Shown one piece after another: positions 26,067 through 42,428 of a stretch of DNA of 64,000 nucleotides. Source of the DNA: an uncultured Chloroflexia bacterium (lineage in GTDB: Bacteria > Chloroflexota > Limnocylindria > Limnocylindrales > CSP1-4); NCBI GenBank assembly GCA_963768655.1, contig CAVYIM010000004.1, positions 154,500 to 218,499 of the forward strand, in the 5' to 3' direction. A model generated the notes under the pieces. It did no database searches. It was given only the letters and a program-made list of their open reading frames with translations, and was not told the origin of the DNA. Positions within the stretch are counted from its first letter, which is position 1; each line of letters begins with the position of its first letter. The position numbers were made by a program, and so were the translations under genes.

Positions 26067-26150
26067 GTTTCCACTCGCGTTCGATTGTCCCGCCTCACAG
26101 CGGACGGGGGTCATCGAATGTACCAGACGAACGCAAACGGGGGCCGACTC

Positions 26151-26279
26151 GTGGGTCACGCGAGCCACCCGAATGCCTGAGCCACGCGAATGCCCGAGCC
26201 ACCCGAATGCCTGAGCCACCCGAATGCCTGGCCCCCCGAATGCCTGAGCCACGCGAATGCCCGAGCCACGCGAAGCTCC
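26151..26279. repeat. 17-bp direct tandem repeat, ~7 units (GAGCCAC[C/G]CGAATGCC[T/C])
   Basis: Units lie at 26162-78, 26179-95, 26196-212, 26213-29, 26230-45 (16 nt) and 26246-62, with a degenerate unit at 26263-79 and a partial unit before 26162. The array lies in the leuC 5' leader region. Confidence 0.9.
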
Positions 26280-26794
26280 TCAACACGCATGGAGTGAGTA
26301 GTAAGTTGGGCTGCCGGCCCGACTCCGGCACACCGAGAGCCCCGGTCGGCATCGGTTAGCCGTAAGTGGCTGACGACGGTCCATCAGGAGCCGAATCCGC
26401 ACCGCCGATTGGCCTCTCATGGACCGGCGGCCTCGCCGGCCGCACTTTGCACTCACCCCATGCGTGATGAGGAATTCCCGGTCGGGTGGGGCCAATCCCG
26501 GCTAGATCCTGGGCGCTCCCCTCGGCGCCCGCGCCGCTCGCCCGCCCCGGCGCCTGCCCCGGCGCGCTCCCCTCGGCCGCAGCGCCGGCCGCTATTCCAG
26601 CGCCGCCCGCAGGCGGAGCAGCGGGGCGACCGCGAGGGCCTGCGCAAGGCGCCGTTCGTGGCGTCCGCGCACCGCCTCGGGGTGCCCGGTGACGTTCGGC
26701 ACTGGCCCGCTACTGCATTTGCCTGAGACGCTTCCGCTGCGAGGCCGCCGCGCGGGGTAGCCGTGCTCTGGGCCGCGCCCGGAGGAGGCGTGAG

Positions 26795-29700
26795 GTGTTG
26801 GCGAGACGTCCCGCCCTTGCTGTAGCGGCGGCCGTGCTGCTTCTTGGTGGCCTGCCGCTTTCGGGAATCGTGCCCTCACGGGTGCTGGCAGGCGCCTCCA
26901 CGACGCCCGTTTCGCGGTCAATAGATGGGATGGAGGATTCAGGCCAGCCCTCGTCCTCGTCCACCCACGACGTTTCGCTGTCCACGCCCTGGACCGTCTT
27001 CGACACGGACGTGGACGTCGTCGGCGGGAATCTGTCCTTCGCCCAGCAGGACCTCACGATCCCCTCGATCGGCTTTGCCACCACCGTCGCCCGGACCTAC
27101 AACAGCGCGGCGGCGAACGTGAACGGACCCTTCGGCTACGGCTGGTTCTGGACCTACGGGCTCAGCGTCGCGGCGGCCTCGGGTGGCGTCGATGTGGCTC
27201 GGGCAGACGGCCGCGTCGACTTCTACGCCAGCAACTCCTCGGGCTACACGCCCCCGGCGGGCATATACGACACCCTCGCGGACACCGCGGGCGGCGGTTG
27301 GACTCTCACCCTGGTCGACCAGATGGTCTACACCTTCGCCGCGGACGGCAGCCTCACGAGTGAGTCCGACCCCAACGGCAACACAGCCACCCTCGCCTAC
27401 ACCAACGGGCTTGTCTCGAGCCTGACCGACACCGCCGGCCGGACCTGGACCTTCATCGCCGCTCCCGACGGCGTCCACGTCGGCGAAGTCGACGACCCGG
27501 CCGGACGCAAGGTCGACTACTCCTACAGCACCGCCGGCGATCTGGTCGGCGTGACCGATGCCACAGGCGCGTCCGAGACGCTCGCCTATGTGAGCCACGA
27601 TCTCACGAGCCTGACCGACGCGAACGGCAACGCGACTACCTACGTCTACAACTCGGGCGGCAGCGTCGCCTCAGTGACCGACGCCCTCTCGCACGCCACG
27701 TCCTTTGCCTACAACCCCGGTTCGCTGCGCACGACCGTCACCGATCCGCGCGGCAACAGCCACTCCTACAGCTACGATCCGACGTCGCGAGTCACCGTCC
27801 TGACCGACGCCCTGGGCGCGTCGGAGTACTGGACCTGGGACAGTTCGAACGATCGCATCTCGGTCATGGATAGGCGCGCCGACGTGACCTCGTATGCGTA
27901 CGATGCCGCGGGCAACATCACCGGCGTGACCGATGCGAACGGCGGCACCGCGAGCGCCGCCTACGACGCGGACAACCACCCGCTTTCACGCACCGATGCC
28001 CTGGGCCGGACCACCACTTACGGCTACGACGGCAACGGGAACCTGACCTCGATCACCGATCCGAACAGCGGCGTGACGGCTTACGGCTACGACAGCTACG
28101 GCGAGCGCACCTCCTCCACCGACGCCGATCACAACACGACCACCTACGGCTACGACGCGGTGGGCAACCTCACCTCGGTCAGCGATGCCCTCAGCGAAAC
28201 GACCACCTACGAGTACGACAGCGCCGGGCGGCAGACACGCATCACCGACCCTGACGGCCGCATCACGCGCTTCACCTACGACGCGCTCGGACGCGAGCTA
28301 TCGACCACGGACGGCGCGGGCGGCGTCACCAGCTGGACCTACGACGCGGTTGGCAACCGCCTGACCCAGCGCGATCCGGACGGCAACGTCACCCACTTCG
28401 CCTACGACGCCGCGAACCACCTGATCAGCACGACCGACGCCCTGGGCCATATCACTACGCTCGGCTACGACGCCAACGGCAACCGCACCTCGGCGGCCGA
28501 TCCTCTGGGCGATACCACGACCACGCAGTACGACCTCGACAACCGGGCCACCAAGGTCATCGACCCCAACAGCCACGCGACCACAACCGCCTACGACGCG
28601 GTCGGCAACCGGGCCTCGGTCACCGACGCCAACGGCCACATCACTTCGTTCACGTACGACCGACTCAACCGCCTGGTGGGCGTCACCGATCCTGCGGGCG
28701 GACACGCCGCCTACACCTACGACGCTGTCGGGAACATGACGAACGTGACCGATCCCAACGGCCACACGACCACGACCACATATGACGTCCTGAACCGCGC
28801 GGTGTCGGAGATCGACCCGCTCACACACGTGCAGTCGAGCACGTACGACGCGGTGGGCAATCTACTGACCCAGACCGACGCCAACGGCGTCACCACCAGC
28901 TACGCCTACGACGCGGCGAACCGGCTGCTCAGCGCGACCTACGCCGAAGGCGGGGTCAGCTACACGTACGACGGGGCGGGGGATCAGGTAAGTGTCACCG
29001 ACGCCGGAGGCACGACGAGTTACACATACGACGGCGCGCGACGGCTGCTCACCAACACGTCGAACGCCGGCACGGTGTCCGCGACCACCGTGACCTACAC
29101 GTACGACGCCGCAGGCAACCTGAAGTCGCTGCAGAACCCCGACGGCACGACCACCCACTACGGCTACGACGCCGACAACCGTCAGGCCTCGGTAACCGAC
29201 TCCAACGGACACGTCAGCTCGTTCGGCTACGACAACGCCGGCCGGCGCATCACCGAGGATCTGCCCAACGGCACCCATGGCGTCTGGGCCTACGACGCCG
29301 CCTCGCAGGTCACTTCGATCACCTGGACCGGCCCCGCGAGCCAGACCCTCTCCACGATCAAGTACAGCTACGACCCCGTCGGCAACAAGACCGAGATCGA
29401 CGACAACAGCGGCAAGAACGGCTTCAGCTATGACGCGCTCGACCGGCTGGTCTCGGCCTCGTACGGCGGCCGCGGCGTCAACGTCACCTACGCCTACGAC
29501 CCAGCTGGCAACCGGACGTCGATGACGGTCAGCGGTATCACCACGACCTACACGTACGATGCCGCCAACCGCCTGCTCAGCGTGAACGGGAGCCAGGTCA
29601 CCTCCGACGGCAACGGGAACGTGCTGGTCCTCGGCAGCCAGAGCTTCGCCTACGACTCACGCAACCGCCTCGTGGAGGCAGTGACCGGGTCGGTGACCGA

Positions 29701-32700
29701 GCACTTCGCCTATGACGGCGCCGATCAGCGCGCGAGTACCTCGGTCAACGGCGCGGCGACCAGCTACGCCTACGACGAGCATGGCCAGCTGGCCCAGGTC
29801 GTCACCGAGTCGGGCTCGGCCGCCAGTCATGTCTATGGCCTCGATGGTCAGGTCCTTTGGGATGTCTCGAGCGACCAGGGCACGACCTACTACCAGCAGG
29901 ACGCGATGGGCTCGACGACCATGCTCACCGCGGCGGACGGCTCGGTGAGTGGAACGCGTTACTACGACGCCTTCGGCTCGCCGGTCTCGGCGCAGGTTGG
30001 TTCGGGTTCCTATTGGTATGACGGCCAGCAGTACGACGAGAACAGCGGCCTGATCTACCTCCGTGCCCGTTACTACGACGCCGCCCTCGGCCGCTTCCTC
30101 TCGCCCGACACGGCCACGCCTGACTACGCCGACACGCAGTCGCTGAACCAGTACGTCTTCGCCCAGAACAACCCTCTGCGGTTCGAGGACCCGAGCGGGA
30201 AGTTCCTGCAAGTGCTGCTGGGCGCTGCGATCGGAGCGGCAGTCGGCGCTACTGCGGACGTAGGCATGACCTTGCTCACCGATTATGTCTCCAACGGCGG
30301 GCATTTCTCCGATGACCTCGGCGCGAAGGTAGCTGGCGCGGCCGTGTCGGGCGCCATCGAGGGCGGCATCGACGTTGGCCTCGCGACGGCGACTGGCGGA
30401 GCATCCCTTGTCGCCGGTAGCCTCGGGAGCGGCGTGGCAGACGCGGCGGGTTACGCGACAACCGCGGCGCTGGACGAGTACTTCTACCACAAGCCCACTA
30501 CAACATCTGATCTAGTGACCGGCATTGCTGTGCATGGAGTCTTGGGGATGGCCGAAGGTGGCCTATCGCAGGGCATTGCCGATCGCCTCGTCCCAAATAC
30601 CTCATCTGTCCTGAACTCGTTGGTGTCGGGCACGGTAAGCGGCCTGTTCGAGGGCGTCGAGGGCTATTTCGAGAACCCGACCGCCTTGGCTCCCGGTGAG
30701 CTCGCCAGCCCCGCTGGCGGACAGTGGCGCGGCTTCGGCGCGGGCGGTGGTGGCGCTGCATGGGGTAGCGGTGGCGTCAGCGGAGGCGGCGGTGCCTACG
30801 TGCCAGCCACTTTCAGTCCCACGCCGCCCACGATGCCGGAGCCGAGCGGGCCGGTTGTGCTGGTGTGCGATGGAGCCAATTTCTCGCCCAGCTGCGTCGA
30901 CCTTGCCCCCGGGGCGTACGCGGACCTGTCCGTGTTCGGGATGGACAAGCGGATCACGTCCTTCCGGGCCTCCGGCTACCAGGTCACGCTCTTCGATCAG
31001 CTCAATTTCGGGGGCAACGCCACCTACTACAGCGGCGACGTGGCCCAGCTGGCAGCTGGCCTGGACAACACGGCCCGCTCAATCCGAATTCTGCCGGTCG
31101 CCTCCGGCTCCTGGTCGCAGGTGACTCCGTCCGGTTTGATTCCTCTCGCCCGCTACGGTGGCGTCTCGGTCTGGGATCCCACCGACAAGGTCCAGCTCGT
31201 CTTCGGCGGCAATGGCTCTGGTATCGGCTTCCTCAACGACATGTGGGCCTACAGCCCGGCGGCCAGCACCTGGAGCCAGCTCCTGCCCGCCTCCGGGTCG
31301 CCGACGACGAGCTTCGGCTATTACGCCCGTGGCGCCTGGGATAGCGCCGATGGCGAGCTGCTCCTGTGGGGCAATGACTGCACCTCTACGTGCGTGAGCC
31401 AGCTCTGGAGCTTCGTGCCGAGCACCCGGATCTGGACCAAGTTGAGCCCCACCGGCACCGCGCCCGGAGCGGGCTATCCCGTCGTCTGGGATACGGTGGG
31501 CAAGCGGCTCCTCGTCGTCGACTCTTCGGGCAACGTCACCGCCTACAGCCCCACCACCAATGCCTGGGCGGCGCTCACCACCGGGACGACAAAGCCGTCG
31601 AACAACTTGGGTGTGGCCTGGGATAGCACCGATGGGATCGTGCTCCAGTTCGGTGGCGGCAGGAGCTGCAACAATGGCAACTGCAACGATCTATGGGCCT
31701 ACTCGCCGGTCGCGGGCACCTGGACCCAGCTGACCGCGACCAACCCGCCTGGCCTGCGATCCAACGAGCAGCTCGTCTGGGACAGCGTCCACAACCAGTT
31801 GCTCGTCGTCGACGGCAGCAGCTACATCAACGGCATCTCGACCTACTACGACGACGTCTGGGCCTACAGCGTGGCCCAGAGCCGCTGGCAGCAGCTCACC
31901 GTCAGTGGCACGCATCCTGCGGCACGGTGGTATGCCGATCTAGTCTTCGATCCCACCGACGACATCGCTCTTCTCTTTGGCGGCTCCAGCTCCACGACCA
32001 GCTTCCTTGGCGATCTGTCGGCCTATCAGCCAACGGCTCTTACTCTGCCGACCGGGCCGATCTCGGGCGCTCCAAACGCCTGGAGCCCTGCTCCAACCAT
32101 TACCAGCCCTCTCGCCCGCTACGGTGGCGTCTCGGTCTGGGATCCCACCGACAAGGTCCAGCTCGTCTTCGGCGGCAATGGCTCTGGTATCGGCTTCCTC
32201 AACGACATGTGGGCCTACAGCCCGGCGGCCAGCACCTGGAGCCAGCTCCTGCCCGCCTCCGGGTCGCCGACGACGAGCTTCGGCTATTACGCCCGTGGCG
32301 CCTGGGATAGCGCCGATGGCGAGCTGCTCCTGTGGGGCAATGACTGCACCTCTACGTGCGTGAGCCAGCTCTGGAGCTTCGTGCCGAGCACCCGGATCTG
32401 GACCAAGTTGAGCCCCACCGGCACCGCGCCCGGAGCGGGCTATCCCGTCGTCTGGGATACGGTGGGCAAGCGGCTCCTCGTCGTCGACTCTTCGGGCAAC
32501 GTCACCGCCTACAGCCCCACCACCAATGCCTGGGCGGCGCTCACCACCGGGACGACAAAGCCGTCGAACAACTTGGGTGTGGCCTGGGATAGCACCGATG
32601 GGATCGTGCTCCAGTTCGGTGGCGGCAGGAGCTGCAACAATGGCAACTGCAACGATCTATGGGCCTACTCGCCGGTCGCGGGCACCTGGACCCAGCTGAC

Positions 32701-35700
32701 CGCGACCAACCCGCCTGGCCTGCGATCCAACGAGCAGCTCGTCTGGGACAGCGTCCACAACCAGTTGCTCGTCGTCGACGGCAGCAGCTACATCAACGGC
32801 ATCTCGACCTACTACGACGACGTCTGGGCCTACAGCGTGGCCCAGAGCCGCTGGCAGCAGCTCACCGTCAGTGGCACGCATCCTGCGGCACGGTGGTATG
32901 CCGATCTAGTCTTCGATCCCACCGACGACATCGCTCTTCTCTTTGGCGGCTCCAGCTCCACGACCAGCTTCCTTGGCGATCTGTCGGCCTATCAGCCAAC
33001 GGCTCTTACTCTGCCGACCGGGCCGATCTCGGGCGCTCCAAACGCCTGGAGCCCTGCTCCAACCATTACCAGCCCTCTCGCCCGCTACGGTGGCGTCTCG
33101 GTCTGGGATCCCACCGACAAGGTCCAGCTCGTCTTCGGCGGCAATGGCTCTGGTATCGGCTTCCTCAACGACATGTGGGCCTACAGCCCGGCGGCCAGCA
33201 CCTGGAGCCAGCTCCTGCCCGCCTCCGGGTCGCCGACGACGAGCTTCGGCTATTACGCCCGTGGCGCCTGGGATAGCGCCGATGGCGAGCTGCTCCTGTG
33301 GGGCAATGACTGCACCTCTACGTGCGTGAGCCAGCTCTGGAGCTTCGTGCCGAGCACCCGGATCTGGACCAAGTTGAGCCCCACCGGCACCGCGCCCGGA
33401 GCGGGCTATCCCGTCGTCTGGGATACGGTGGGCAAGCGGCTCCTCGTCGTCGACTCTTCGGGCAACGTCACCGCCTACAGCCCCACCACCAATGCCTGGG
33501 CGGCGCTCACCACCGGGACGACAAAGCCGTCGAACAACTTGGGTGTGGCCTGGGATAGCACCGATGGGATCGTGCTCCAGTTCGGTGGCGGCAGGAGCTG
33601 CAACAATGGCAACTGCAACGATCTATGGGCCTACTCGCCGGTCGCGGGCACCTGGACCCAGCTGACCGCGACCAACCCGCCTGGCCTGCGATCCAACGAG
33701 CAGCTCGTCTGGGACAGCGTCCACAACCAGTTGCTCGTCGTCGACGGCAGCAGCTACATCAACGGCATCTCGACCTACTACGACGACGTCTGGGCCTACA
33801 GCGTGGCCCAGAGCCGCTGGCAGCAGCTCACCGTCAGTGGCACGCATCCTGCGGCACGGTGGTATGCCGATCTAGTCTTCGATCCCACCGACGACATCGC
33901 TCTTCTCTTTGGCGGCTCCAGCTCCACGACCAGCTTCCTTGGCGATCTGTCGGCCTATCAGCCAGTCGGCATGCCTGGAGCACCGAGCGGAGTCGTCGCC
34001 ACGCGCGGCAACACCACCGCGAGCATCTCCTGGGTGGCGCCGGTCTGGACAGGCGGGACTCCGATTACCGGCTACACGGTTACGAGCGCTCCTGCCGGCT
34101 TGACCTGCACCACCACCGGGGCGACCACCTGCACCGTCTCCGGCCTTTCCAACGGCACCTCCTACACGTTCACCGTCACGGCGACCAACCTGATGGGGAC
34201 CGGTCCCGCCTCAGCGCCGTCCGCGGCAGTCATACCGGCCACACTGCCGGCCGCGCCGACGGGTGCGACCGCGCAGCGTGGGAACGCCTCCGCCCTTGTC
34301 AGCTGGACCGCGCCGTCGAGCACCGGCGGGATCCCGATCACCGGGTACACCGCTACCAGCTATCCGGGCGGGCTGACGTGCGCGACGACCGGCGCGACCT
34401 CGTGCACCGTCTCCGGCCTGACGAACGGCACTTCGTACGCGTTCACCGTCGCAGCCACCAATGACGTCGGGACTGGGCCGGCGTCGGCGGCCTCTTCGCC
34501 TGTCATTCCGGCTGCCCTGCCCGGACCTCCGACCGGAGTCGCCGCCACGAGCGGACCGACATCGGCCAGCGTGATGTGGACGGCGCCGGCGGTCACGGGC
34601 GGCAGCCCGATAACCGGCTACACCGTCACGAGCTTGCCCGGGGCAAAGACCTGCACAACGACCGGCGCGAAGACGTGCACCGTGACCGGCCTCACCAACG
34701 GCACCGCCTACACGTTCACAGTCACGGCGACGAACCTCGTGGGCACCGGCCTGCCGTCGGCGCCTTCGGCGGCCGTTACGCCGCTTGGGCCACCGGCGGC
34801 CCCGACGGGCGCTACCGCCACTCGAGGCAACGCTTCGGCCGTTGTCTTCTGGACGGCACCCAGCGACAACGGCGCGAGCCCGATTACCGGCTACACGGTG
34901 ACGAGCTCTCCGGACAGCCAGACCTGCACCTGGACGAGCGGACCGCTCTCCTGCACCGTGATGGGCCTGACCAACGGCACGGCCTACACGTTCACCGTCA
35001 CTGCAACCAACAGCGTTGGGACCGGCCCGGCTTCGAGCCCGTCCGCCGCCGTGACGCCTGCCACGACGCCCGACCCGCCCAGCGGAGTCACCGGTACCCG
35101 GGGTAACACCTCGGTGCTCGTGTCGTGGACTGCGCCGTACAGCGGCGGCAGCCCGATCACGGGGTACACCGTTACGAGCTCTCCATACTCCCAGAACTGC
35201 ACCAGTACCGGTGCCACGATGTGCACCGTGACCGGTCTGACCAACGGTCAGGCTTACACGTTCACCGTAACCGCCACCAACGCGGTTGGGACCGGGCCGG
35301 CGTCCGCCTCCTCAGATCCAGTCACACCCGCAACCCTTCCTGGCGCGCCCAGCGGAGTCATCGTCGCCCCCGCCGATGCTGCGGTTACGGCGTGGTGGAC
35401 CGCCCCATCGAGCGACGGCGCGAGCCCCATCACGGGCTACACGGTCACGAGCTCGCCTGGCGGCCTGACGTGCACCACGACGGGCGACCTCACCTGCACC
35501 GTGACCGGCCTGACCAACGGTCAGCCGTACACCTTCACCGTCACGGCCACGAACGACGTCGGGGTCGGGCCTGCATCGGCAGCGTCGCTGGCGGTGACTC
35601 CCGTCACGGTCCCAGACGTCCCGACCGGCGTGGCGGCAACTCGTGGCAACGGCGAAGTCCTCGTGTCGTGGACCGCCCCGGCCGATACGGGCGGCCTGCC

Positions 35701-38700
35701 GATCACTGGCTACGTTGCCATCTCTGATCCCGACGGAGACACGTGCTCGACGACCGGCGCCACCAGCTGCATGGTGACCGGGCTCACCAACGGCCAGGGA
35801 TACACGTTCACTGTCCTGGCTGCCAATGACGTCGGAGTCAGCGATCCGTCGGATCCTTCCACCTCCGTGACACCCGACGCCGTGCCCGATCCACCAACAG
35901 ACGTGATCGCCACCGCCGGCGACTCGTCCGCCAGCGTCACATGGTCGGCCCCATCCGACAACGGGACCATCATCACCGCCTACACGGTCACGAGCTCGCC
36001 CGATGGCTGGACCTGCGCCACTACGGACGAGCTCACCTGCGTTGTGACCGACCTGTCCAACGGCACGGCCTACACCTTCACCGTAACCGCATCGAGTGAC
36101 GCCGGGCCTGGCCTGCCATCGGCGCCTTCGGCCCCGATCACGCCGGCCGCGCTCCCCGACGCACCTACAGATGTGACTGCCGCGCCAGGCAATGGTTCAG
36201 CCCTGGTGAGCTGGACCGCACCCTCGGACAACGGCTCTCCGATCACTGGCTACACCGTGACAAGCTCGCCTGACGGCAAGACCTGCGCCTGGACAAGCGG
36301 GCCACTCTCCTGCGCCGTGACCGGCCTCACAAACGGGACCGCCTACAGCTTCACCGTAACCGCGACCAACGGTGTCGGGACGGGCTCTTCTTCTGCGGCG
36401 TCGAGCAAGGTCACTCCCGCCACTGCGCCGGGTGCACCGACGGGAGTGAGCGGTGTCCGCGGGAACGGCTCGGTTCTGGTTTCCTGGACCGCGCCGGCAT
36501 CAGATGGTGGCGCCGCCATCACGCTCTACACCGTGACGTCGTCGCCGGGCTCGAAGACCTGTACCTGGGCGACGGGGTCGCTCTCCTGCACCGTCACCGG
36601 ACTCACCAACGGCACCGCCTACACCTTCACCGTGACGGCGACTAACGGCGTCGGCACCGGTCTAGCCTCGGCCGCCTCGAACAGCGTCACCCCGGCCACG
36701 GTGCCGGGGGCGCCGACTGCCGTGGCCGCCACCCGCGGAAACGCCTCGGCGGTGGTCTCCTGGACCGCGCCAGCATCGAATGGCGGCAGCGTCATCACGC
36801 TCTACACCGTGACAAGCTCGCCCGACGGCAAGACCTGTACATGGACGAGCGGGCCGCTCTCCTGCACCGTGTCCGGCCTGACCAACGGCACCGCCTACAC
36901 CTTCACCGTAACCGCCACCAACGGCGTCGGTACAGGGGCCCTGTCTACCGCTTCGGCATCGGTCACTCCTGCCACGGTGCCCGGCGCTCCCACCGGCGTG
37001 ACGGCCACGCGAGGGAACGCCTCGGCTCTCGTGTCCTGGACTGCTCCAGGCTCGAATGGTGGAGTTGCCATCACCGGCTACGCCGTGACGTCCACTCCTG
37101 ACTCGAAGACGTGCACCTGGACCACCGGTGCTCTCTCCTGCACCGTGTCGGGCCTGACCAACGGCACGGCCTACACCTTCAGCGTGACCGCCACCAACAG
37201 CGTCGGGACCGGTCTGGCCTCGGCCGCCTCGAACAGCGTCACTCCGGCCACCGTGCCCGGTGCGCCCACCGCGGTCAGTGCCACCCGGGGCAACGCAGCC
37301 GCCACTGTCTCCTGGAGCGCGCCAGCCTCAACTGGCGGCAGCGCCATCACTGCCTACACCGTGACAAGCTCCACTGGGTCGAAGACCTGCACCACCGCCG
37401 GTGCCGTCAGCTGCACCGTCACCGGACTCACCAACGGCACCGCCTACACCTTCACCGTGACGGCGACTAACGGCGTCGGCACCGGCGCTGCGTCCGCCGC
37501 TTCGGCGTCGGTGACACCGGCCACCTTCCCAGGCGCTCCCACCGCCGCGACCGCGACGCGCGGCAACACGTCTGCCACCGTGTCCTGGACGGCAGGGGCG
37601 ACCAATGGCGCGGCGATCTCTGCTTATCAGGTGATCGCCAAGCCGGAGGGTGAATCCTGTACCACCACCGGTGCTCTCTCCTGTACCGTGTCGGGTCTGA
37701 CCAACGGCACCGCCTACACCTTCACCGTAACCGCCACCAACAGCGTCGGGACCGGTCTGGCCTCGGCCGCCTCGAACAGCGTCACTCCGGCCACCGTGCC
37801 TGGTGCACCGACGGCCGTCACCGTCACCCGCGGCAACGCCGCGGTGCTCGTGTCCTGGACCGCCCCGTCAGCCAACGGCAGTCCCATCACCGCCTACACG
37901 GTCACGAGCTCCACTGGCTCCAAGACCTGTACCACCACCGGTGCTCTCTCCTGCACCGTGTCCGGCCTGACCAACGGCACCGCCTACACCTTCACCGTCA
38001 AGGCCACCAACAGCGTCGGTACAGGGGCCGCGTCGGCGGCCTCCGCATCGGTGACACCCACGACCGTGCCCGGCTCACCGACGGCCGCCACGGCCGTCCG
38101 AGGCAACGCCGCGGCTGCCGTGTCCTGGACCGCCCCGTCGGTCACCGGCTCCAGCTCGATAACCGGCTACACCGTCACCAGTTCGCCTGGCTCCAAGACC
38201 TGTACCACCACCGGTGCTCTCTCCTGTACCGTGTCGGGTCTGACCAACGGCACCGCCTACACCTTCACCGTAACCGCCACCAACAGCGTCGGGACCGGTC
38301 TGGCCTCGGCCGCCTCGAACAGCGTCACTCCGGCCACCGTGCCTGGTGCACCGACGGCCGTCACCGTCACCCGCGGCAACGCCGCGGTGCTCGTGTCCTG
38401 GACCGCCCCGTCAGCCAACGGCAGTCCCATCACCGCCTACACGGTCACGAGCTCCACTGGCTCCAAGACCTGTACCACCACCGGTGCTCTCTCCTGCACC
38501 GTGTCCGGCCTGACCAACGGCACCGCCTACACCTTCACCGTCAAGGCCACCAACAGCGTCGGTACAGGGGCCGCGTCGGCGGCCTCCGCATCGGTGACAC
38601 CCACGACCGTGCCCGGCTCACCGACGGCCGCCACGGCCGTCCGAGGCAACGCCGCGGCTGCCGTGTCCTGGACCGCCCCGTCGGTCACCGGCTCCAGCTC

Positions 38701-39790
38701 GATAACCGGCTACACCGTCACCAGTTCGCCTGGCTCCAAGACCTGTACCACCACCGGTGCTCTCTCCTGTACCGTGTCGGGTCTGACCAACGGCACGGCC
38801 TACACCTTCACCGTAACCGCCACCAACAGCGTCGGGACCGGTCTGGCCTCGGCCGCCTCGAACAGCGTCACTCCGGCCACCGTGCCTGGTGCACCGACGG
38901 CCGTCACCGTCACCCGCGGCAACGCCGCGGTGCTCGTGTCCTGGACCGCCCCGTCAGCCAACGGCAGTCCCATCACCGCCTACACGGTCACGAGCTCCAC
39001 TGGCTCCAAGACCTGTACCACCACCGGTGCTCTCTCCTGCACCGTGTCCGGCCTGACCAACGGCACCGCCTACACCTTCACCGTCAAGGCCACCAACAGC
39101 GTCGGTACAGGGGCCGCGTCGGCGGCCTCCGCATCGGTGACACCCACGACCGTGCCCGGCTCACCGACGGCCGCCACGGCCGTCCGAGGCAACGCCGCGG
39201 CTGCCGTGTCCTGGACCGCCCCGTCGGTCACCGGCTCCAGCTCGATAACCGGCTACACCGTCACCAGTTCGCCTGGCTCCAAGACCTGTACCACCACCGG
39301 TGCTCTCTCCTGTACCGTGTCGGGTCTGACCAACGGCACGGCCTACACCTTCACCGTAACCGCCACCAACAGCGTCGGGACCGGTCTGGCCTCGGCCGCC
39401 TCGAACAGCGTCACTCCGGCCACCGTGCCTGGTGCACCGACGGCCGTCACCGTCACCCGCGGCAACGCCGCGGTGCTCGTGTCCTGGACCGCCCCGTCAG
39501 CCAACGGCAGTCCCATCACCGCCTACACGGTCACGAGCTCCACTGGCTCCAAGACCTGTACCACCACCGGTGCTCTCTCCTGCACCGTGTCCGGCCTGAC
39601 CAACGGCACCGCCTACACCTTCACCGTCAAGGCCACCAACGCCCTGGGCACGGGAGCCGCCTCGGCCGCATCGGCCTCGGTGACACCCACGACCGCCGCG
39701 GTCACGTCGTCTTCAGAGCTCGGAACCGGACCGGCGACCACAGACCCGGGGCAGACAGCGGGTCGCCCGCGGACGGACTCTCGGCTCTGA
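26795..39790 (+). CDS. giant secreted Rhs/YD-repeat protein with C-terminal Kelch-propeller and FN3 arrays (4,331 aa)
   Basis: The GTG start lies 6 nt after GGAGGAGG, and the N-terminus looks like a Sec signal ([13 protein letters not shown]...LAGA). Dozens of YDxxGN...TD repeats are present, and the Rhs core ends at [17 protein letters not shown] (aa ~1120-1136). After that come a Gly-zipper-like segment and a beta/gamma-crystallin-like unit. Three 322-aa Kelch units and 21 FN3 domains complete the protein. Confidence 0.9.
31142..33964 (+). repeat. intragenic tandem repeat, 966-bp unit x ~2.9, apparently 100% identical
   Basis: Identical sequence recurs at offsets of 966 nt (31142, 32108, 33074). 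Even the off-frame ORFs in the track are identical between copies (for example 31693..32310 equals 32659..33276). Copy 3 diverges after CTATCAGCCA at 33964. Confidence 0.95.
37656..39640 (+). repeat. intragenic tandem repeat, 543-bp unit (two FN3 domains) x ~3.65, near-identical
   Basis: Period of 543 nt (for example TGGCTCCAAG at 38188, 38731 and 39274). The only difference I saw is ACC versus ACG in AACGGCAC[C/G]GCC: copies 1-2 carry C and copies 3-4 carry G. The array ends where ...GCCACCAAC is followed by GCCCTGGGC instead of AGCGTCGG. Confidence 0.9.
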
Positions 39791-39833
39791 CCCCAGGGCT
39801 GTTGGCGGTCGCCCGAGGGCTTGCGTAGGCTCG

Positions 39834-42428
39834 TCAGTCCAGCTCCAGCGACGCCCGCAGGCGGATATCGCGCGAGGAGGCACCGACCAGGATCTCGAAC
39901 CGGCCGGGCTCGATTCGCCAGCCGCCGCCGGCTTCGTCCCAGTAGGCCAGATCGCGGTCCTGGAGAGCGAAGGAGACGTCGACGCTCTCGCCCGGCGCCA
40001 GGTGCACTGCCGTGAAGCCCTTCAGCTCGCGCGGCGGGCGCGGGACCGACGACTCCAGGTCGGCGACGTAGACCTGCACCACTTCCTTGCCGGGGCGGCC
40101 ACCCGCGTTGCGCAGCCGAACCTTCAGCTGGGCCGAGTCACCGGCGGGCAGGCCGTCGGCGGTGACTTCGAGCGACTCGAACTCGATGCGGGCGTAGCCC
40201 AGGCCGTGCCCGAAGCAGAACCTCGGTTCGATCCCCGCGATGTCGAAGTGGCGGTAGCCCAGGTTGACGCCCTCGGCATAGACCAGTTCCTCCCGCTCGC
40301 CCGGCATCGTGCTGAGCGCGGGATAGTCGCATTCGCGGACGGCGATCGTGAAGGGCAGCCGCCCGCCCGGCTCGGCGGCGCCGAGCAGTACGTCGGCGAG
40401 GGCGCTGCCGAATTCCTGGCCCGGCAGCCAGGCGTACAGGACGGCAGCGACTCGATCTGCCCAGGGCAGATCCATCGGGCAGCCGGCGTTGACGACGACG
40501 ACGGTCCTGCGGTTGGCCGCGGCGACGCGCTCGACGAGCTCGTTCTGGCGGCCGGGTAGCGTGACGGTCGTGCGGTCGCGGCCCTCGGATTCCCAGTGCT
40601 CGTCGTTGCCGACGACGACGATCGCCACGTCTGCCGTGGCGGCCGCGGCGGCGGCTCGCTCCAGCTGGTCCGCCGCCTGCGGAGGACGGCAGCCGATGTT
40701 GAGCTGGTACGGGGAGTGAGTCGCCGAATGAATCTCGGCTTCGATGAGCACCGGCTCGCCGGCTCGAAGCTCGAATGTGCCGCCGTCCCGGCTGCCTTCG
40801 AACAGGGCCGTCGGGATGTCGGCCGCGGGACGGGCGTCCCAGAGGTCCGCCGCCACGACACCACCAACCTTCAGCCGCCGGCCGCCGAATCCGCGCAGCT
40901 CGATGTCGTGCGGACCGCTCTCGGACGGAGTGAGCCGGCAGGACAGGCGCACGGCGAAGTCGTCGGCCGCGATGCCGTGGGGCAGGTCGCCGAATATGTG
41001 CAGCTCGCTCGAGTCGACATGCCAGCTGGCGACAGGATCGCCGGCCGGCTCCTGGCCGTGGAAGAACTCGACCGTGAGGCCGGGCTGGCCGTGGAGGTCG
41101 CGCACGTCCATCGCGCTCAACGGCGGCAGGAACAGGTCGATGTGGCAGCCCGGTTCGTGGACTATCTCGGCTCCCGGGAGCGCGGCCCGCAGCCCCTCGA
41201 TCGGAGTCACCGTGGGCGGGGCGGCGATGTTGGCCGCACCGCCTCCCTGGGCGCACGGTTTGGAGGCGTTGGGCCCGATGACCGCCAGCTTGCGGATGCC
41301 GGCCGGAGCGAGCGGCAAGGTGCCGTCGTTGGTCAGCAGCACGAACGACTCGGCGGCGGCCCGGCGCACGAGGGCCGAAGCCGCGGCGTCGGACAGGTGC
41401 CAGGGCTGCTCGGGATCGAGCGGCGCGTTGCCGGGGCCGGAGCCGGCGAGCGGCCGCGCGCCCGCGCCCTCGGCCCGCGCGCGGGCGCCCTCGGCCCGCG
41501 CGCCCACGCGACCGGCGCCCCCCGAGGCTCCACCTCCGACCAGTGCCCCGACGCGCGCCGCGAGCAACAGTATCCGGCGTGCCTTGTCGTTCAGGACCGC
41601 TTCGCTCACCTCGCCCCGCCTGACCGCCTCGCCCAGCACCGGGCCCAAGAAGCGGGCAGGACCGGGCATCTCCAGGTCCAGTCCGGCCAGGGCTCCGGCG
41701 ACGGTGTCGTCGGCGGCGTGCCAGTCGGACATCAGCACGCCGTCCCAGCCCCACTCGCCCTTCAGAATCTCGCGGACCAGGTGATCGTGATCGACGCAGT
41801 GGACTCCGTTGACGAGGTTGTAGGCGGCCATGATCGACCACGCCCCGGCGTTCGCGGCGGCCTCGAAGGGGACCAGGTAGACCTCGCGCAAGGTCCTCTC
41901 GTCGACCCGGCAGTCGACCGAGGTGCGGTGGGTCTCGGATTCGTTGGCGACGAAGTGCTTAGGCGTGGCGGCCACTCCCGCCGACTGCATTCCCGCGACG
42001 TAGGCGGCGCCGAGCACGGCGGCCAGAACCGGATCCTCGGAGTACGCCTCGAAATCCCGGCCGCCCAGCGGTGAGCGGACGAGGTTGAGCACCGGCCCCA
42101 GCATGTAGTGGACGCCGGCCCGCTTCGCCTCGGCGCCGATCCGGGCCGCGACCTCGCGGACCAGATCCACGTCCCAGGTCGCGCCGAGGGCAGTGCCGCA
42201 CGGCGTGCACGTGGCCGTCGAACCGGCCGGGAAGGTCATGCCCCGAGCGCCGTTCGGGCCGTCCAGCGTGACCATCGGCGCGAGGCCGATCGAGGGCGCG
42301 CCGCACGGGTGCCAGGCGTCGACCCCGCCCGTCAACGCGGCCTTCTCCTTTATGCCGAGAGCCCCCAGGAGCTCTTCCAGGCGTTCGGGGCTGATCGGGC
42401 TGTCGGGAGCGGGGCGGGCGACCTGCAT
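39834..42428 (-). CDS. GH3 beta-glucosidase with PA14-like insertion and C-terminal Fn3-like domain
   Basis: The ATG at 42428 gives MQVARPAP. Contains SEDPVLAA, KHFVANESE and GVLMSDW (GH3 nucleophile region), and a C-terminal part ending VYVADLESSVPRPPRELKGF. The upstream part of the 1,147-aa ORF looks non-coding. Confidence 0.9.
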   Translation of the reverse strand: MQVARPAPDSPISPERLEELLGALGIKEKAALTGGVDAWHPCGAPSIGLAPMVTLDGPNGARGMTFPAGSTATCTPCGTALGATWDVDLVREVAARIGAEAKRAGVHYMLGPVLNLVRSPLGGRDFEAYSEDPVLAAVLGAAYVAGMQSAGVAATPKHFVANESETHRTSVDCRVDERTLREVYLVPFEAAANAGAWSIMAAYNLVNGVHCVDHDHLVREILKGEWGWDGVLMSDWHAADDTVAGALAGLDLEMPGPARFLGPVLGEAVRRGEVSEAVLNDKARRILLLAARVGALVGGGASGGAGRVGARAEGARARAEGAGARPLAGSGPGNAPLDPEQPWHLSDAAASALVRRAAAESFVLLTNDGTLPLAPAGIRKLAVIGPNASKPCAQGGGAANIAAPPTVTPIEGLRAALPGAEIVHEPGCHIDLFLPPLSAMDVRDLHGQPGLTVEFFHGQEPAGDPVASWHVDSSELHIFGDLPHGIAADDFAVRLSCRLTPSESGPHDIELRGFGGRRLKVGGVVAADLWDARPAADIPTALFEGSRDGGTFELRAGEPVLIEAEIHSATHSPYQLNIGCRPPQAADQLERAAAAAATADVAIVVVGNDEHWESEGRDRTTVTLPGRQNELVERVAAANRRTVVVVNAGCPMDLPWADRVAAVLYAWLPGQEFGSALADVLLGAAEPGGRLPFTIAVRECDYPALSTMPGEREELVYAEGVNLGYRHFDIAGIEPRFCFGHGLGYARIEFESLEVTADGLPAGDSAQLKVRLRNAGGRPGKEVVQVYVADLESSVPRPPRELKGFTAVHLAPGESVDVSFALQDRDLAYWDEAGGGWRIEPGRFEILVGASSRDIRLRASLELD

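Follow-up and report, generated by a model that had tools for sequence, protein, structure and literature searches.

Nucleotide-identical, in-frame repeats within single genes are well known in surface proteins of Gram-positive bacteria, among them the alpha C and Rib proteins of group B streptococci and proteins of the Esp/Bap type, and partial homogenisation of paralogues by gene conversion is exemplified by the tufA/tufB pair. Here we describe a repeat tract of this general kind in an uncultured Chloroflexia bacterium (order Limnocylindrales, CSP1-4), located within a stretch of 64,000 nucleotides (assembly GCA_963768655.1, contig CAVYIM010000004.1, positions 154,500 to 218,499, forward strand; hereafter the window). 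The tract lies in a giant uninterrupted open reading frame (ORF) of 4331 amino acids (positions 26795-39790, plus strand), delineated from the ORF list and translation, Pfam and NCBIfam matches and the GC content at third codon positions (GC3). In our assessment it is probably a real in-frame triplication of a whole-domain module, consisting of a 25-amino-acid linker and a six-blade Kelch propeller, that was amplified and homogenised by recombination. The streptococcal and Esp/Bap-type repeats share with this array in-frame units that each form a whole folded domain, near-100% DNA identity kept by recombination, a secreted or surface protein as carrier (predicted in the present case) and a unit number that can change without harm to the reading frame.

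Extent and identity of the Kelch repeat tract

The tract covers positions 31142-33964 (2823 nt) and follows a perfect period of 966 nt without a single mismatch. Comparison of the window with itself at this period returns one unbroken exact run over 31142-32998 (1857 nt), and direct string comparison finds copy 1 identical to copy 2 across 966 nt and to copy 3 across 891 nt. A run of 1857 consecutive matches is impossible by chance, and with zero differences at 1857 positions the copies have diverged by less than about 0.16% (95% bound, our calculation). Immediately beyond both edges, identity at the same period is 0.25-0.35, which is the random level. The unit corresponds to 322 codons in phase 0 of the giant ORF, and the identity includes synonymous sites.

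Within the tract, a propeller body of 297 amino acids (K, 891 nt) alternates with a linker of 25 amino acids (X, 75 nt) in the order K-X-K-X-K, all on the plus strand. K1 occupies positions 31142-32032 and is followed by X1 (32033-32107), K2 (32108-32998, identical to K1), X2 (32999-33073, identical to X1) and K3 (33074-33964, identical to K1), directly after which the first FN3 domain begins. An earlier note, made from the sequence alone, had described three identical 966-bp copies starting at 31142, 32108 and 33074, identical at synonymous sites as well, and had proposed a self-alignment as confirmation. The identity stands in full, at silent positions too, and the period-966 comparison is exact throughout; what does not hold is the count of three full copies, as the content amounts to 2.92 units and the final unit has no linker X.

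Fold of the propeller unit

Each unit was proposed in the earlier note to encode six Kelch blades, and profile matches, structural modelling and structural neighbours agree on this point. Pfam Kelch families match across the whole unit (PF24681, 1e-83; PF24981, 2.1e-68; together with Kelch_1, Kelch_3, Kelch_4 and Kelch_6). An AlphaFold2 model of one linker plus propeller body (X with K2, window positions 32033-32998), built from an alignment of 15 sequences, has a mean predicted local distance difference test (pLDDT) score of 88.7 and a predicted template modelling (pTM) score of 0.89, and it contains 24 blade strands arranged as six four-stranded blades in a closed ring. The top Foldseek neighbours of this model in the PDB are the six-blade Kelch domains of LZTR1, KLHDC2, KLHDC3 and KLHDC10, with template modelling (TM) scores of 0.75-0.79.

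In the model, blades 1-5 and all but one strand of blade 6 come from K, and the fourth strand of that blade is formed by residues 16-19 of X (AWSP), N-terminal to K; the AWSP strand of X1 would thus close blade 6 of the propeller that follows it. For the first propeller, by analogy with the modelled strand, the closing strand of blade 6 must presumably come from the left flank, where a tail of 13 amino acids (31103-31141, plus strand), lying outside the identical tract, resembles the end of X at the protein level only, and distantly. Because a strand from the preceding segment closes blade 6, the model predicts three complete propellers, although the last DNA unit is without X. Blade 6 would accordingly be completed from upstream in every case, by the left flank in propeller 1 and by linker X in propellers 2 and 3, and each propeller would fold alone.

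Origin and homogenisation of the array

At the DNA level, X is related to neither the left nor the right flank. A single simple duplication of K was considered as the origin of the array and is ruled out, X being derived from neither flank. For the same reason, a state with two propellers and an intervening linker (K-X-K) must, judging from the sequence, have preceded homogenisation, and since the left-flank strand matches the linker strand only distantly and at the protein level, the tract would represent an older repeat structure that was homogenised rather than one fresh copy-paste event. Homologous recombination between the repeats, whether by unequal crossover, replication slippage or gene conversion, would both make the array and keep it uniform, and exchange reaching only as far as the homology would produce total identity within K-X-K-X-K together with abrupt edges. 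The process would be one of concerted evolution. The event itself is recent and ordinary in kind, namely domain amplification made uniform by recombination, and the very recent duplication or gene conversion put forward in the earlier note is supported by absolute identity inside K and X and a sharp stop at both edges.

With a unit of 322 codons in phase 0, the reading frame would survive the gain or loss of whole propellers. The in-frame mechanism of length variation suggested in the earlier note is supported to that extent, but copy-number variation itself is not seen, as both known versions of the gene carry three propellers.

A second, circularly permuted version of the gene

A profile-free search that exhaustively covered 1.84 billion representative proteins returned 16,091 Kelch relatives. 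Only two of these are close (98-99% identity), and both are gene fragments on one contig of 13,361 bp (contig_127695 of the ENA assembly ERZ25039480). This contig carries the left-flank segment (L) and the array as a continuous L-K-X-K-X-K, and hence 2.92 units adjoining unique left-flank sequence, as in the window. Its array differs from that of the window almost entirely by copy-specific insertions and deletions and by clustered substitutions, and frameshifts interrupt its genes. The error rate is about 1.3% in the Kelch array and about 0.1% in adjacent unique segments, and the contig has an appearance typical of a low-coverage long-read consensus.

As a whole, contig_127695 corresponds to window positions 26540-39837 in exact circular permutation, closed by the novel junction 39837|26540. 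Its sequence begins at the counterpart of position 33962, passes through the FN3 array to 39837, where it is joined to 26540, and stops at the counterpart of 33961. Identity to the window varies as a mosaic, being 100% over 26540-26965, about 70% over 26965-28400, about 99-100% over 28400-36450, about 70% over 36450-39690 and again 100% over 39690-39837. At the left border of the shared core (28400-29000) identity climbs gradually across some 600 nt, starting at 0.86 and reaching 0.99, and it changes abruptly at about 36450 and at 26965; the gradual border may be an older or repeatedly used recombination border.

The simplest readings of this contig are tandem paralogous giant genes with a recently exchanged core that the window contig crossed once, a minority tandem form, or an excised circle; an artefact of the assembly graph is a further candidate. 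The first of these would make the window gene an assembly chimera. Let S denote the shared core of about 8 kb (28400-36450, including the Kelch array), a the N-terminal RHS part, b the distal FN3 part and J the junction; a genome arranged as a1-S-b1-J-a2-S-b2, in which the assembler passed S once, would leave the loop b1-J-a2-S as contig_127695. In a variant of this reading, a minority of cells would carry the tandem pair or an excised circle. The exact circular permutation with its novel junction and the mosaic identity fit such an arrangement, and contig_127695 is what a long-read assembler would emit for a loop on a collapsed repeat. However, the contig is far noisier than the window and has many frameshifts, which suits a low-abundance variant better than an equal-coverage part of one genome; the two assemblies may come from different samples; and the one short-read run that contains the window sequence has exact pieces of window-type a1 and b2 segments. 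The loose contig ends of that run, a freshwater-sediment metagenome, gave no match to the contig_127695 version. On balance we consider the chimera doubtful, and the Kelch array stands even if it is true.

Taken biologically rather than as an artefact, the same observations raise the tentative possibility of a locus that recombines on several scales: two mosaic RHS-Kelch-FN3 genes in tandem, or one of them present as an excised circle of 13.36 kb, would share a freshly exchanged core of 8 kb that includes the triplicated propellers, with the N-terminal third (RHS) and the distal FN3 stalk diverged by about 30%. If so, recombination between gene copies would reassort the variants of shell and stalk and insert or remove entire genes, and recombination on a smaller scale would resize the propeller and FN3 arrays. 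In an uncultured bacterium of sediment or peat, this would provide cassette-like variation of a giant surface protein.

Copy number of the propellers

The triplication of the propeller module depends on the assembly, and the warning in the earlier note that perfect repeats are a source of copy-number error is a fair one. The count of three propellers is probably right. The 2.92 units of contig_127695 argue against a gross artefact and so answer the warning in part, as far as that contig, which may share data with the window assembly, is independent. An origin of the whole tract as a short-read graph artefact is rejected, because graph assembly from short reads is very unlikely to carry a contig of 64 kb or more through two perfect arrays with periods of 966 nt and 543 nt (the latter described below); for this reason the window contig was very probably built from long reads that span the 2.8-kb array.

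An alternative is that the repeat is real and the number of units is wrong, or that cells differ and the assembler took one path. Assembly is classically prone to error at perfect tandem repeats, and since contig_127695 ends at the array edge, the array formed a node in the ERZ25039480 assembly graph. The short-read run covers 265 of the 966 unit positions in one contig at a depth of 5, against 2.3-4.3 for single-copy sequence; this is below the expectation for three copies, at a depth far too low to decide. On the other side, linker X requires at least two copies of K, 2.92 copies joined without a break to unique left-flank sequence are present in both assembled versions, a length of 2.8 kb is easily spanned by long reads of a few kilobases, and the ORF is open throughout the array. 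We therefore hold an incorrect unit number to be unlikely.

Several points nonetheless weigh against a recently amplified and potentially variable array of three propellers. The only run with the window sequence is a shallow (about 3x) short-read freshwater-sediment metagenome, in which the sequence is present as short contigs that say nothing firm on copy number. Contig_127695 ends 3 nt short of the right edge of the array and may share reads with the window assembly. Comparison of the two gene versions disclosed no copy-number variant, so that length variation is a potential only, and the ligand and function of the propellers are wholly inferred. The comparison of copy number among related strains or metagenome bins that the earlier note proposed thus yielded one further version, with the same 2.92 units, and no other relatives in the genome and metagenome collections. 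The array also marks a place where the assembly deserves checking.

The FN3 array and a second amplification

Downstream of the propellers, positions 33965-39693 (plus strand) encode an array of 21 FN3 domains, recognised as 21 stretches by the Pfam fn3 family and as periods of 270-273 by Tandem Repeats Finder (TRF). Its distal part (37656-39640, plus strand), defined by exact runs at period 543, contains about 3.65 copies of a 543-nt unit that comprises two FN3 domains, with one mismatch at position 38254. This second near-perfect array in the giant gene shows that the amplification process is ongoing. The contig_127695 version, in which the distal FN3 domains are diverged, has no near-perfect 543-nt array; because the array is absent there, its amplification appears to be specific to the window version, and the Kelch triplication appears to be part of the shared core.

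The two arrays together also bear on the proposal that slight real differences between the Kelch copies were erased when ambiguously placed reads were used to polish the consensus. Polishing software can make near-identical repeats uniform, and the errors of contig_127695 are concentrated in the Kelch array, indicating that read placement is difficult there. Reads spanning the array are placed unambiguously, however, and the 543-nt array kept its single mismatch, so the pipeline preserves single differences between copies. Erasure by polishing is accordingly improbable.

Domain architecture of the giant protein

The giant protein consists, in order, of an N-terminus resembling a signal peptide, a DUF6531 domain, about 21 RHS/YD repeats, an RHS-associated core, a segment rich in glycine and alanine, a crystallin-like domain, the three Kelch propellers (residues 1450-2390) and the 21 FN3 domains. 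The RHS part is defined by 21 RHS_repeat stretches in Pfam and by the NCBIfam families TIGR01643 and TIGR03696, the latter matching residues 1057-1135 with 68 bits against a cut-off of 32.5. The core ends, by the TIGR03696 match and the position of the motif, in DPSGK (residues 1132-1136; positions 30188-30202, plus strand), the counterpart of the DPxGL motif. It is followed by a hydrophobic segment of 217 amino acids (30203-30853, plus strand; 21% glycine, 15% alanine) with a poly-Gly/Pro linker at its end, to which no Pfam or NCBIfam family was matched; this segment might be a shell filler like the internal linker of teneurins, or a membrane-active module. The beta/gamma-crystallin-like domain ahead of the propellers is a weak match.

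From this architecture, the protein would be secreted or surface-exposed, with the propellers serving as ligand-binding heads between the RHS/YD shell and the FN3 stalk. Triplication would then increase the valency or the reach of these heads. GC3 is 0.82-0.88 along most of the gene and 0.72 in the post-core segment, and neighbouring genes are similar, which speaks for a genuine gene.

Genomic context and distribution

The genes around the giant gene are of a housekeeping type and comprise leuCD, ilvD, ilvB, leuB, a GH3 beta-glucosidase and an MMPL transporter. The GH3 gene is the next gene downstream and is convergent, its stop codon lying 44 nt past that of the giant gene. In the nearest relatives (seven contigs whose GH3 is 86% identical, mostly from peat metagenomes, with one NCBI metagenome-assembled genome), GH3 and leuC adjoin at a distance of about 480 nt and the giant gene is absent. 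Homology of the window to this empty site stops near position 26485 on the left and restarts at 39838 on the right, and the 13.3-kb gene is, on this comparison, apparently a lineage-specific insertion.

Comparison with the empty site also reveals a 22-bp direct repeat (21 of 22 positions identical), with the left copy at 26596-26617, left over from the GH3 3′ end at the left edge of the insertion, and the right copy at 39844-39865, within the true 3′ end of the convergent GH3 gene. Recombination between these flanking repeats as the source of the circular junction of contig_127695 is ruled out, the junction 39837|26540 lying outside them. In the intergenic region on the leuC side, no Rfam family was matched and promoter and terminator signals did not exceed chance. 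The leuC leader contains, at 26147-26258, a tandem array of a 17-bp repeat (6.7 copies by TRF) where the closest relative has about 41 nt of unrelated sequence; the leader parts on either side of the array are 94% and 76% conserved.

A word-indexed homologue search with residues 1180-1790 found no full-length relatives. Scans for related loci returned one Kelch protein of Segetibacter, 26% identical, among genome contigs and nothing among metagenome contigs. Across sequencing runs, the window allele was found in the shallow freshwater-sediment run alone, peat and permafrost runs contain only the related species, which lacks the gene, and no Nanopore run was among those returned.

Comparison with known systems

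The array is a clean example of concerted evolution of whole-domain repeats, and its unit, a complete six-blade propeller, is unusually large. The 13.3-kb gene around it is lineage-specific, combines RHS shell, Kelch propellers and FN3 domains in an unusual architecture and exists in at least two mosaic versions; the array belongs to its recently exchanged core. The mosaic, circularly permuted second version is a more interesting lead than the array itself; if the tandem or circular arrangement is true, the locus would offer a natural setting in which to study how recombination builds, resizes and diversifies giant repeat proteins. A survey of the literature on proteins combining RHS, Kelch and FN3 domains found nothing relevant.

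Giant proteins with several Kelch propellers are common in public metagenomic protein sets (among them P0003 with 2981, P0023 with 4666 and P0036 with 3112 amino acids), and their existence makes the architecture of the window protein plausible. Like it, they are very large, carry several consecutive propellers and often include Ig-like or FN3-like domains. They differ in that their propellers are diverged from one another and 28-33% identical to the window unit, and in that RHS repeats occur in none of the six examined.

With the RHS/YD polymorphic toxins (Rhs, WapA, TcC) and the teneurins, the giant protein shares DUF6531, about 21 RHS/YD repeats and a TIGR03696 core ending in a DPxG motif. 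Of the features that define RHS polymorphic toxins, the repeats and the core are present, whereas a short C-terminal toxin suited to encapsulation and an immunity gene downstream are not: the core is followed by about 3,195 amino acids rather than by a toxin of at most 300 amino acids that fits inside the shell, no toxin family was matched in these residues by Pfam or NCBIfam, and no small immunity-type gene lies directly downstream, where the convergent GH3 gene comes next. Teneurins, too, place a large folded portion beyond the shell and include a beta-propeller. Their propellers, however, are of the NHL type and N-terminal to the shell, whereas those of the window protein are Kelch propellers C-terminal to it.

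Compared with the alpha C/Rib repeats, the Kelch unit of 322 amino acids, a six-blade propeller plus linker, is far above the size of the Rib or Ig-like units of about 80 amino acids, and only three units are present. No copy-number variation among strains is seen, the one other version having 2.92 units, and the host is an uncultured, high-GC environmental bacterium. The tufA/tufB pair resembles the giant gene in having fully identical blocks with sharp borders beside strongly diverged ones, a pattern that holds both for the three K units and for the two gene versions. In contrast to tufA/tufB, the giant gene displays this pattern at three nested scales within one gene, namely the 543-nt FN3 unit, the 966-nt Kelch unit and the 8-kb core.

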